A stretch of 64,000 nt of DNA, from the NCBI GenBank assembly GCA_963693365.1, contig CAVNZM010000015.1:2294001-2358000 (forward strand), given 5' to 3'. The stretch comes from Amoebidium appalachense. Lineage: Eukaryota > Protista > Ichthyosporea. The notes under the pieces were generated by a model. The model made no database searches, was not told the origin of the DNA, and worked only from the letters and a program-made list of their open reading frames with translations. Positions 51,054 through 61,082 of the stretch are shown one piece after another (the first letter of the stretch is position 1; every line of letters begins with the position of its first letter). A program made the translations under genes and the position numbers.

Positions 51054-52750
51054 ATGCCGCGTTATTCCCCCCTTCCTGTAGCAGAGAATGCAATCAGTGA
51101 TCCTGTAGTGTTATTTTACTCCCAGGACATAGCGCCCGAAAGCGATGTAGGGTTTCCAAAGAACCGTGTCATCAGGGGAGATGAGGCCTTCACGCAGTTT
51201 GATTTGGTCGAAGTAAGGGTTATGGGGGAAGCAGGGCCACACTATGCCATCATTCGTAAGTTCGTGCAAGCAGAAAATGGCGAGGTCAAAGCAGAAGTCT
51301 CATGGGTTCTTACGAAAAGCCAGCTTCAGAGATATTTTTTTGTCTTTGCAACCACCAATTCTAATGCAGGTGCACACGACCGCACAGTGCACCTGCCCAA
51401 CAAGCTTTATCTTAGTGATTTAAAAGACGTCATAGACGTTAATGCAATAGAGAAACGGGCATACAGCGGCCAGCTGGTTCATCACGATTACAACACAGGT
51501 GATGGACAGCCCTTTTATCGGTCGTTAGCGCGCGTGCACAGCGCGCCCAAGGACCGGCTGCTTGTGCCGGTCAGGAAGGCCCCTCCCTTGAATTTGTAAG
51601 TGGTGCTTGTCGGGATGCTTTTGTTTGTTGGTGGCTTATCAACTGAAATCCCCTTGTTGTGCACAGCTTCCGTTTTCTGGGACTGTCAGCAGCAGCTGGG
51701 GACGTATGGCTGCATCTTTGGCCCTTGCTGCAGCTGTACCTTTTGCAGATGTAGGTATTTGTTCCGTGACCCCCCGTACACAAGCATCTGCTTTGTTTTC
51801 ACAACTGCATTTTTGTTGCATTGAGCATGCCGTCCGTTTTCCTCAATCTAACTTTTTGCCCTTACAAAGATGGTGTAAAGATGTGGCTTCCTCTCCCACA
51901 TAGATGAGCGTTACATAAGGCATGTAATTGAAGGTATTTTTCAAGTGTGTTTAATAGGTTTGATAAGAAAGGCTCGTTGATACTACAACAGTAAGTAGTA
52001 TAGAGATAATGATGGTGATACGTTTTTCCAGCTTCCACAGTGCGGTGCAGACCTACCGTCTCAACCTCAACAGGGCCTGGATCAGCAGCACCTACATCAT
52101 TCCGCTGCGCCAGTTTGCGGCCATGGTTGTTCGACAACTCCCTGGGGCTGTCACAACGCTCGCGCCGGTTAAGCGCCGGCTCAAGGTATCACTCTCCCCC
52201 CTCCCCCTTTCCCCCAAACCTTCTCCTCATCCACCACAGATCCTCTTCCATCCCTTCCACCTTCCTGTCTCCCTCTCCCCCTTCTCTCTAAGCTGCTGTG
52301 GCGTAGAAAATCTTGTTTACTTTGACACGTGTATACACAGTTATTGCCGGGCTGATGCTGTGGTGCAAGTAACAGGCGATTTACCACAGGGAAACTCTCT
52401 CTCCCCCTACCCCCTCCCCCCCCCCCCCCCACCACCACACACGCCCCCCCCCCTCTCCCCCCCCTCCCCCTGGCTCCTCGCTCTTTCCTCTGCAGGTGCG
52501 CATCACATCTGTAAAGCAGATGACTGCACTGCTGGGGGAGGACTGGGAGAAGCACCGGGGGCGGTATGGCGGTGGTAGGACTGTAAGGTTGCGCGCGAAT
52601 GCTTTTCTCATTTATTGCCTTGATTCTCAAAAGATGACTTTAAGATTCAATCATTGGGTAGTTTATAACAACAATGATGTAGCTCTGTACGAAATCCTTT
52701 TTAAAAAGCAGATAAACCCAGGAGCAGGCCCGGTGCCTTTGACTCCTTAG
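51054..52750 (+). CDS. ~316-aa protein with an N-terminal BAH-like domain and an unknown C-terminal domain (3 exons: 51054-51595, 52032-52185, 52496-52750)
   Basis: GT-AG joins keep the frame. The segment FDLVEVRV...PHYAIIRKF...KAEVSWVLTKSQL...NKLYLSDLKDVIDVNAIEKR follows the BAH pattern (D-V-V, PYxAxI, A-V-W, ELFLS...D-I-V--I-K). This is pattern recognition, not an HMM result. Confidence 0.62.
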
Positions 52751-55700
52751 AGTTAGGGGTGTGCTATTAAAAAAAACAGTGTTACCAGTTCAAATCTTTC
52801 GAAGAACCCCCCCCCCCCCCCCCCCCCCCCCCCCCCGCCGCCGCCACACCACACACACACACACACACACACACACACACACACACACACACACACACAC
52901 ACACACACACACACACACACACACACACACACACACACACACACACACACACACACACACACACACACCCTTTCCCCCCGGCCTCCAAGAGCCTGATCAG
53001 GAAAGGAAAAAAAAAAAAGGCTTGAATTGTGCACCACCAGATCATCAGTGCCATTTTTTTCTTCCTCTTTCCCTTTCTTTCCTGCATTCGGACACACACA
53101 AAGGGGTTGAGCCTTGGAGAAAAGGGAAGAAGGTGACTAGGTGGTGGTGTCCGAGGGGGGGGGGGGGGGGGGGGGGGGGGGGGATGCAACCATGTTTGCC
53201 TGGCTGTGTATGCGCCGCTCAGTTAAGTTACTTCATGAGTCCCACCTCCCCCCCCCCCCCCCCCCCTCCCCCTTCCTTTTCTGAACTCCATCAGTGCTGT
53301 ATCCCTTCATGTGTGTGAGTTTCAAAAACCATGTCTATTTTAGCACGTTCAAACACTCCTCCCCTCTCCCCTTCAGATCTGCTCAGCCAACCAGTCCCTC
53401 CCCTCCCCCCCCCCTGCTTCAATTCGACTTGATGTCACCTCTACAGAACGGGGGGGGGGGGGGGGGGGAGGAGGGGCGGGATGCGCCGGCTATGCATGCC
53501 TTTTTTTTCCTTTCTATCCCCCCCCCCCCCCTCCCCTCCCCCCACCCCCACCCGGGCTTCCCTTCCCCTCTTAGTAAGTCTTTGCTGTTCAACCTAGTCA
53601 ACTTCCCTTCTCTCCCACCAGACGCTGTCACCTCTCTTCTTTTCGATTTGAGCTCAGCATACAAATTTATAGGCGCTTTGACTGCATGAGGTGGCGCCTT
53701 GGAACCTGAAGTGTGTGTGTGTGTGTGTGTCTCGGGGGGGGGGGGGGGGGGGGGGGGGGGCGTGGGCGACGGTGTGCGCCCATGCTTTGGCAAGGGATAG
53801 TGCCACATCATAATTAGTATACGCCTCCCCCATGTACACATGCATTGATAAATCGACTCAATTGTGCGCGCAGGGGTTGGGTCGAAACCGCTCAATAAAA
53901 AAAACTTACGTGTACATCTTTATTTTTCTAAAGAAAAAAAAAAAAGAAAGAAAAAAGAGGAAAGCCGGCCAGCCAGTGGCCTCACTCCTCGAGCTCATCC
54001 CCCGAGTCGGAGGACTCATCTCCCCGGCGCGGGTCGAGTTCCTCCTCCGGATCCGGGCCGGGCTGAAAAGCATCCTGCCCAAGATCCCGATCTGGGTGTG
54101 GTGCTGGGCGGGGCTGCCCGTTCCTTGCCAGCTCCGCCATTATTTCGTCGTAGCGCGTTCTGAAGTAGTCAACGTGCCTGAAAGCAAACGCCACAGACAA
54201 CCGCCTCATCACCTGACCAGCTTCGCTCGCCTGGACGCCAATCCTGCCACGCCCAGCTGCGCCTCTGAGTGTCGTATTTCCATGCAGCCTGTTGCAGTCA
54301 CTGTTTGATGGGCCGGGTCAATGGAATCGACCCGAATAAAAAGGAATCCAATGTTTGACCGCTGATCAGTCCGAACGTATATCTCCGTGACAATCTTCAC
54401 ACACGAAAAAGTTTGTCCATTTGTTTTTGTCCTTTCAAACATAGGTACCCATTCACAAAGCTTTACATTGGCAACACGGTCAGTACGTGTGAGAGTTAAG
54501 ACATGAGTATGTGCGCACAGCAGTGCAGAATGAGAGGCACGCAAAGAAAAAAGTAACGGGTGTGTTTGCGTAATAAGTGGAGGGGGCTGTGGAATTGCTC
54601 GTTTAAGTGTTTTTATGCTAAAGGATGATTTTACCTGTGTAGACCCTTGTGCGCCGTAGTAGAGAACGCAGCGAAGCCTGTGACTCTACCGTGCGGATCT
54701 TTTCGACAAATCAGGTAACCACCGTGGGCAGCCAGCAGATGTACGTAGTAGGGCAGGGTTGCATGCTTGGTTCCAAAGTCCAGGAGCAGGACGTAGTAAA
54801 GTTCCTGTTTTGGTTTAGCATGGTTACAAGCTTTTTTTACGGAAAGCATTAGCGTTTAAGGTACACGCTTTTCGTTGGCATAGAGTTAGGATAGAGGCCG
54901 AGGCATTTCTCACGCAACAGTGGTCACGCCTGGCTTGCCTACACACAGAATATTTTCTCCCGAGGCTCTCTCCCTCCATCTTGCCCGCTCCCCCCCCCCC
55001 CCCCCCCCCAAAAAAAAAAAAAAACAAAGAAAGGGAAAAAACCCGTCTTCCCCTGCTCCTTCCCTCCTCTTCTTTCCCTGCCCCCTCCTCCCTCTCGTGT
55101 GCCATGTTCATGTTGCAACCCTTGAGAAGAAGTCAATTCAACACTCTTGACACCACGCATTTCAGGTCCCACAGTTGTATCCCTTCTAATTCTAACAGAT
55201 TCTTGCCTGTAAGCTTTGTTGAACTTCTAATACATAAGGACTTACGTGACATAGGCACTCACCAGCTTTTTGCACAGAAAGGGGAAATTCTGGACATCCT
55301 CGAGTGTCAAGCAGTTGGACCCCGGCTCGTTCTGTGCCGAAGGGACCGGCATGCCATCATCCGTCCACTGGTCCGGTTCGGTCTTCCTGAGGATGTCAAG
55401 CACCTGTAGGTACACCTTTTTTTTTTTTTTTTTTTTTTTTTTTCCCGTTGTGTGTGTTTTGTTTTGTTTTGTTTTTGGATGCAGAGCACTAACACTTCCC
55501 TGAGGCTTTGAAATGAATCTTTGCCTTTCCCGCCCCCTTTTGTGTGGGGAGGCTGGTAGGAAGAATAGCGATCTAGTCATGGGGAATGAGGGCTCAGTGT
55601 GTGCTGTTGTATGAGTGTGCGGGTGGTGGTGATGGTGGTGGTGGTTTGTGGATATGTGTGTGGGTGGGTGGGGGGAGGGGGGGGGGGGGATAAAGGTGTG

Positions 55701-60900: not shown

Positions 60901-61082
60901 GTGCATTGCTCAATGATTTAGCAGCGCTGCGGACGGGCAACTTGGCCGTCGGCAGCTTGTTGTTTGCCATGTTCAAGGCATGTTTTAGGAAAAGCACAAA
61001 CAGGGCGAGGTACACCTTATGCAGATGCATCTGGTAAAAAAACAGGAGAAGTACCCGTTTGGGGTGTCTCATCAGCAAACTT

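Follow-up and report, generated by a model that had tools for sequence, protein, structure and literature searches.

RAGL elements, including ProtoRAG and AanRAGL, combine a transposase of the RAG1 fold with a convergent partner gene that carries a chromatin-reader-like domain (PMC10629977 and PMC9435367, in their accessible parts). The RAGL partner is a six-bladed kelch protein with a PHD finger, the transposase has a CCGHC tail and a GRPR/K motif (the latter lost in RAGL-B), and the elements end in asymmetric terminal inverted repeats (TIRs) resembling recombination signal sequences, with duplications of the target site (TSDs) that are 5 bp long. Transib elements have the Asp-Asp-Glu (DDE) core and the SxxCxxC and H(3-4)H motifs in a single-gene element of 3-4 kb (PMC1131882, accessible part). 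The accessible part of PMC12730594 places C(2)C and H(3-4)H motifs in the interval from the second Asp (D2) to the Glu (E) throughout the CMCT clade (EnSpm/CACTA, Mirage, Chapaev, Plavaka, ESTA and Lanisha), and describes 5'-CA..TG-3' termini, TSDs of 2-5 bp, and cargo genes acting on chromatin or DNA marks (TET/JBP). Here we describe a locus in a 64,000-nucleotide stretch (the window) of Amoebidium appalachense contig CAVNZM010000015.1, in which a minus-strand transposase gene converges on a plus-strand gene with a BAH-like domain. The two genes probably form one two-gene element of the CMCT clade; somewhat less firmly, we favour as the full explanation a decayed two-gene CMCT (RAG1-fold) cut-and-paste transposon with the BAH gene as its likely helper. 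The main features, with gene structures as predicted, are as follows.

60970-53982, minus strand: transposase gene, 14 exons, 993 amino acids (aa)
60970-60382, 60064-60005, 59685-59296, 58537-58353, 58277-58165, 58091-58007, 57576-57392, minus strand: transposase exons 1-7
57322-57127, 56833-56631, 56397-56211, 55979-55809, 55403-55263, 54804-54635, 54288-53982, minus strand: transposase exons 8-14
58218..58220, minus strand: first catalytic Asp, D428, in LRIDG
57454..57456, minus strand: second catalytic Asp, D515, in LGGDL
57304..57324, minus strand: SxxCxxC or C(2)C motif with C539 and C542, SKFCPCC from aa 536, its Ser codon split by a splice junction
54648-54646, minus strand: Lys888, in the column of the third catalytic Glu (E962)
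56367..56705: 170-bp tandem duplication, 97.6% identity, spanning the exon 9/intron/exon 10 junction
51054..52750, plus strand: BAH-like gene, exons 51054-51595, 51667-51750 (optional), 52032-52185 and 52496-52750

We built the transposase model by splicing coordinates; its 13 introns are all GT-AG and its frame has no internal stop. Exons 1-3 are the least certain part of the model, because other runs have frameshifting indels there. The first-pass annotation had reported a spliced gene with motifs in the order of the RAG1 core, and the 993-aa protein indeed holds all of them in that order: LRIDG (D428), SSRDCYPF, LGGDL (D515), SKFCPCC (C539/C542), GEVHWRDR (H691) and YYVHLLAAH. An H(4)H motif, H857/H862, lies upstream of Lys888. 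Both hmmsearch and hhalign pair D428 with the first Asp of a related family found in corals and soil (see below), and D515 was identified by alignment to that family. The spacing between the two Asp residues is 87 aa (77-91 in the coral/soil family), and that from D2 to the Glu position is 373 aa, against 247-274 in the family, 253 in RAG1 and 206-214 in Transib (PMC1131882, accessible part). Intron 6 contains duplicated segments of 28 and 59 bp (window 57577-57920).

The likeness to Transib lies in the catalytic core, SxxCxxC and H(3-4)H motifs. In contrast to the short single-gene elements of Transib, however, the window has a 7-kb gene with 13 introns and a second gene beside it. The convergent arrangement, which had been called ProtoRAG-like, does resemble RAGL in layout, but the pair fails RAGL membership: the 993-aa model has neither a CCxHC tail nor a GRP motif, and the partner has a BAH-like and a matchless domain (316-344 aa) instead of kelch and PHD. 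No inverted repeat was found in the window, the right end lying beyond an insertion at 61,070. The CMCT clade is matched by C539/C542 together with H857/H862; the nearest relatives have 5'-CA ends. Because the whole of this clade shares the C(2)C and H(3-4)H motifs, a special closeness of the window protein to RAG1 or ProtoRAG beyond it is not supported; the proposed RAG1/Transib kinship thus stands as membership of the RAG1-fold CMCT transposases only. Searched singly against Pfam (15 pieces, BAH-gene exons included), the transposase exons gave no significant match, the RAG1, EnSpm and Plavaka models included. No match was found for one exon pair among PDB sequences, and no homolog in word-indexed searches with exons 4-5 and 7-8; the ESM Atlas returned nothing usable for exons 4-5.

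A scan of metagenome contigs with a short motif gave at least 120 loci. One transposase family takes in 98 of the 122 loci examined and 238 further proteins, many of them named from corals and anemones. Its profile A2 matches amphioxus RAG1L (6B40, E 4.4e-5) and zebrafish RAG1 (E 1.4e-4) in PDB, and the predicted structure of the member L020 (predicted local distance difference test, pLDDT, 90.6) matches mouse RAG1 with E 5e-15 and a template modelling (TM) score of 0.64, compared with 0.39-0.53 for HzTransib. Aa 425-550 of the window protein score 9.8 bits against profile A1 (best of 1,000 shuffles, 2.5), and the hhalign score against the family is 37.5, with a maximum of 26.5 over 60 shuffles. 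An ordered chain of nine blocks gives the protein 40.2 bits (z 3.9, equalled by none of 500 shuffles), and for aa 401-560 the scores with three profiles were equalled by 0, 3 and 0 of 1,000 shuffles. There is good support for reading the window protein as a CMCT transposase of the RAG1 fold, the direct statistics being weak and the fold evidence for the relatives strong. The family has a coral-type and a soil-type subfamily, the latter presumably fungal. Some coral-type transposases (L020, L041) have a SAP-like domain at the C-terminus.

We found that the family includes a published 'bacterial Transib'. FXLX01000066.1 (L131, 1156-3240), the only one of 46 motif matches in prokaryote genomes to fall in the family, is the sequence that Tao et al. 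2022 (PMC9435367) published as CthTransib_0066, and it matches the profile that gives the window protein its best match with E 3.8e-91. In trees of the related family and the window protein only (no outgroup, rows below 430 aa left out), CthTransib_0066 nests among animal-derived, coral-type proteins (identity 36-39%, weak node support). This nesting suggests host contamination of the metagenome-assembled genome from which it comes, where its contig is 3.2 kb long at 0.19x coverage. The window protein differs from it as an intron-rich, long-branch outlier with Lys888. The group that includes CthTransib_0066 serves Tao et al. as the root for RAG1L and Transib, and the main text of PMC9435367 mentions no second gene for this group.

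The window copy has defects. The first-pass annotation had taken the E962 helix to be conserved; by motif spacing after H857/H862, however, the E962 column holds Lys888, while Glu occupies it in all 54 related-family rows that have a residue there. The column is anchored to RAG1 through the comparison of profile A2 with PDB. The Lys888 codon, AAG, is preceded by CAC, and it may have arisen by a CpG-type transition. The complete DDE triad of the CMCT clade is therefore lacking, with D428 and D515 kept; such an incomplete triad is a mark of an inactive copy, and no bar to CMCT descent. The 170-bp duplication, if retained in the transcript, stops the frame at aa 703, so that the model needs it to be spliced over. 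Variants of exons 1 and 3 in other runs comprised 4 synonymous and 20 non-synonymous changes, 1 of the latter nonsense (24 of 39 variants listed), a ratio that appears near neutral and gives no sign of purifying selection. Because of Lys888, the duplication and these variants, the copy is probably dead or decaying, and an intact enzyme is not supported.

The BAH-like gene converges on the transposase with 1,231 bp from stop to stop, in agreement with the estimate of about 1.2 kb made earlier. Its proposed 3-exon form (316 aa) is open, and a 4-exon form (344 aa) is equally so. The BAH-like region covers about aa 40-140 and is followed by a matchless domain. For exon 1 the best matches in the ESM Atlas are BAH clusters (0.94, 205 of 256 features in common, 25 of the 30 matches in the set), which favours the BAH assignment of the first-pass annotation, but the recognition value of 2037 is under the tool's mark of 2300, and Pfam, PF01426 included, gave no family for the BAH-gene exons at E up to 1. 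No kelch or PHD match was found in three of its exons. The single-sequence structure model had a pLDDT of 35, and with it Foldseek was uninformative; 6 of 30 weak fold rows were BAH-domain chains (Z 2.0-2.3). Among 1.84 billion representatives the sole match was a repeat-rich, kinesin-like artefact and no credible homolog, an orphan status that would not be expected of a BAH gene conserved in the host. Nothing related came up in viral sequences scanned with the BAH exon, with the motif of the family or with a Transib motif.

A second gene is the rule among the relatives. Of family loci with at least 1 kb of downstream sequence, 26 of 27 have a homologous convergent second gene (20 of 21 when loci are clustered at 90% DNA identity); with a 500-bp threshold the count is 31 of 38. 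Pfam, run on 86 of 208 candidate neighbour open reading frames (ORFs), found a chromodomain in 4 and a weak C2H2 finger in 10. Coral-type partners consist of a chromodomain followed by a conserved domain of about 135 aa, for which there was no Pfam or PDB match, and soil-type partners of a weakly scoring C2H2 finger followed by a different domain; partner alignment A3 likewise had no Pfam or PDB match. One element end was fixed at CATATGGG by identical copies with differing flanks. We found five complete, TIR-bounded copies of 3.9-4.4 kb with both genes inside, four of them convergent and one (L067) head to head; the partner in all five is a C2H2 finger with an unannotated domain, and a 2-bp flank match was seen at 2 of the 5. 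Their TIRs start with CATAT. Exceptions exist: in L022 (464-3783) an 86-bp inverted repeat surrounds the transposase alone and no partner was detected, and L027 is a family member without a partner.

L052 3012-3890, L076 134-757, L042 4927-5418, L031 7301-7681: chromodomain partners, convergent on coral-type transposases (Pfam E 7e-9 to 5e-17)
L019 648-4746, L043 441-4309, L050 45-4181, L058 270-4418, L067 116-4547: complete two-gene elements

Two further features bear on the extent of the window element.

50061..50087, plus strand: segment joined before 59556 in one contig of run X1, 26 of 27 letters, matched by eye
61070..64000: separate, AT-rich, high-copy element that starts with CA, 100 bp upstream of the transposase ATG

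The 27-mer at 50061-50087 is unique in the window, the next best match having 8 mismatches, and the X1 join links the upstream flank of the BAH gene to the 5' part of the transposase. The join looks like a 9.5-kb internal deletion in which the BAH gene and the greater part of the transposase were lost and the ends kept. Upstream of the BAH ATG, 50090-50183 (plus strand) may be an open exon; its splice signals are good and its acceptor is at the deletion join. The insertion at 61070 is evident from several different flanks at 61064-61071 and from empty-site contigs in X1, X2 and X8. Its contig depth is about 20- to 400-fold above that of the transposase gene, the 5' part of which was seen at low contig depth in three organisms; run X13 matched this nested element only. 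The 61070-64000 element is distinct from the transposase/BAH pair. It has a 4-exon minus-strand gene at about 63790-62416, for which Pfam gave nothing meaningful, and TTGCCAATA-type repeats are scattered in it. Since the insertion puts the right end of the pair outside the window, the missing TIRs say little. Two candidates for ends were set aside: CATATG at 49984 as a left end, which is a chance-level occurrence, and a weak inverted match between 49948-50046 and 50900-50993, equalled by 1 of 300 shuffles.

That the two genes are one element is probable because a helper gene facing the transposase is routine in the closest relatives that could be detected. Also counted for it were the X1 join across the BAH gene, the orphan status of that gene, and the low GC content of the 48-61 kb block (0.43-0.52, where the host block at 30-46 kb has 0.51-0.66). 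Several observations weigh on the other side. As the first-pass annotation had stated, no TIR or TSD was found within the window. CATAT[GC] is no commoner than expected by chance (3 in 5 kb), and a second copy with a BAH gene was not seen. The X1 join was seen in a single contig, which may represent an allele of this locus with a deletion. In hmmsearch, hhalign and block-chain comparisons the C-terminal half of the BAH gene scored no higher than shuffles against both partner families, which match each other barely (E 0.038), so the comparison has low sensitivity; the idea, formed by eye, that this half is the soil-type partner domain failed the same tests. No BAH domain was among the 86 scanned neighbour ORFs (of 208 candidates), and 22 of the counted ORFs had gone into building the partner profiles, so that the count of partners is one of recurrence and not an independent test. 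In a by-eye match to SHL, whose methyl-lysine cage is Y41/W63/Y65 (PMC6013494, accessible part), the BAH-like protein has two of the three aromatic residues, Y65 and W84, with L86 at the third site. As for the transposase, a coral-heavy profile gives it -0.2 bits (3 of 1,000 shuffles score higher), its C-terminal half (aa 671-940) is at shuffle level or only just over it, the score being equalled in 8-182 of 1,000 shuffles, and it falls outside the family, with 14-23% identity and a very long branch of 3.2-3.4. The automatic block chain placed the D1 and E blocks elsewhere and left the Lys888 block unselected.

These points leave room for a single-gene CMCT transposon lying beside a BAH gene to which it is unrelated, whether that gene is the host's own and lineage-specific or belongs to another element. 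The lack of TIR, TSD or a second paired copy, the dissimilarity of the BAH C-terminal half to both partner families, the single-gene relatives L022 and L027, and at least one other nested element in the window all agree with such a chance neighbourhood; the X1 join, however, spans the BAH gene, convergence is the norm of the family (26 of 27), and the BAH gene has no host-type homolog, and we consider it unlikely. A domesticated, catalytically inactive pair that the host has retained, perhaps as a complex that binds DNA or chromatin, would account for the open 14-exon frame, the canonical splice sites and the low contig depth of the transposase 5' part in three organisms, but the near-neutral ratio of substitutions, the nonsense change, the frameshifting indels in other runs, the internal duplication and the deletion form make it very improbable. 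Slimmer still is the chance of a true RAGL/ProtoRAG relative in which a BAH protein replaced RAG2L. It would fit the convergent layout, the RAG1-order motifs with SxxCxxC, the closer fold of the nearest family to RAG1 than to HzTransib, and the root that Tao et al. place in a group containing a member of the coral/soil family. Against it are the missing kelch partner, CCGHC tail and GRP motif, the D2-to-E distance of 373 instead of 253 aa, the lack of a match to the Pfam RAG1 model from any transposase exon and to PDB from the one pair searched, and the pan-CMCT nature of the motifs.

If the pair is one CMCT element, it is more likely that the two-gene layout was inherited and the partner or its reader module replaced than that a partner was recruited independently, because a convergent partner is usual in the nearest lineage. 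Excision of active copies would follow the nick/hairpin chemistry of RAG1 and Transib; cut-and-paste transposition is established for the RAG1/Transib family (PMC10629977, accessible part). The partner would be an adaptor: its variable N-terminal locator (BAH in the window pair; a chromodomain or C2H2 finger in relatives) would place the transposase, and its C-terminal domain would dock onto the transposase or the element ends; the BAH helper is predicted to tether the element's machinery to chromatin. This is the simplest role, since the N-terminal module varies among chromatin- and DNA-binding types. Granted a single element, we regard such targeting as possible, at a little short of an even chance; it is also possible, though less so, that the partner acts against silencing of the element's own chromatin. 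Fusions of transposons with chromatin readers recur, mostly with Chromo and PHD domains (10.1101/2021.11.30.470311, accessible part); in the window the reader has a gene to itself, and that part of the source does not name BAH among the fused readers.

Outside the element, a GC-rich host-type gene at 43000-45700 (minus strand) resembles an RsmB/NSUN methyltransferase (weak Pfam E 0.058), and another at 39870-41080 (plus strand) may, judged by eye, be of the L7Ae type. Rfam had no match in 45500-64000.

In the literature covered, with subscription journals, Repbase and preprint supplements outside its scope, we found no description of the two-gene lineage or of a BAH partner. If the window pair is one element, it would be the first BAH-type partner of a RAG1-fold transposase found in accessible literature. 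For tests, the intact 4-kb relatives whose ends are defined (L019, L043, L050, L058) are more suitable than the probably dead window copy. The placement of CthTransib_0066 bears on the claimed bacterial origin of RAG. A broader generalization, which we regard as doubtful at present, is that throughout eukaryotes transposons of the RAG1 fold have a helper that locates chromatin and can be exchanged (chromodomain in corals, C2H2 in soil eukaryotes, BAH here, kelch-PHD in RAGL), with RAG2 as one instance, and that the 'bacterial Transib' at the root of RAG belongs to this two-gene lineage of eukaryotes. If the window pair is one element, RAG1-like enzymes would have been paired several times with chromatin readers, and the idea that histone reading by RAG2 is an old transposon targeting trick would become testable.

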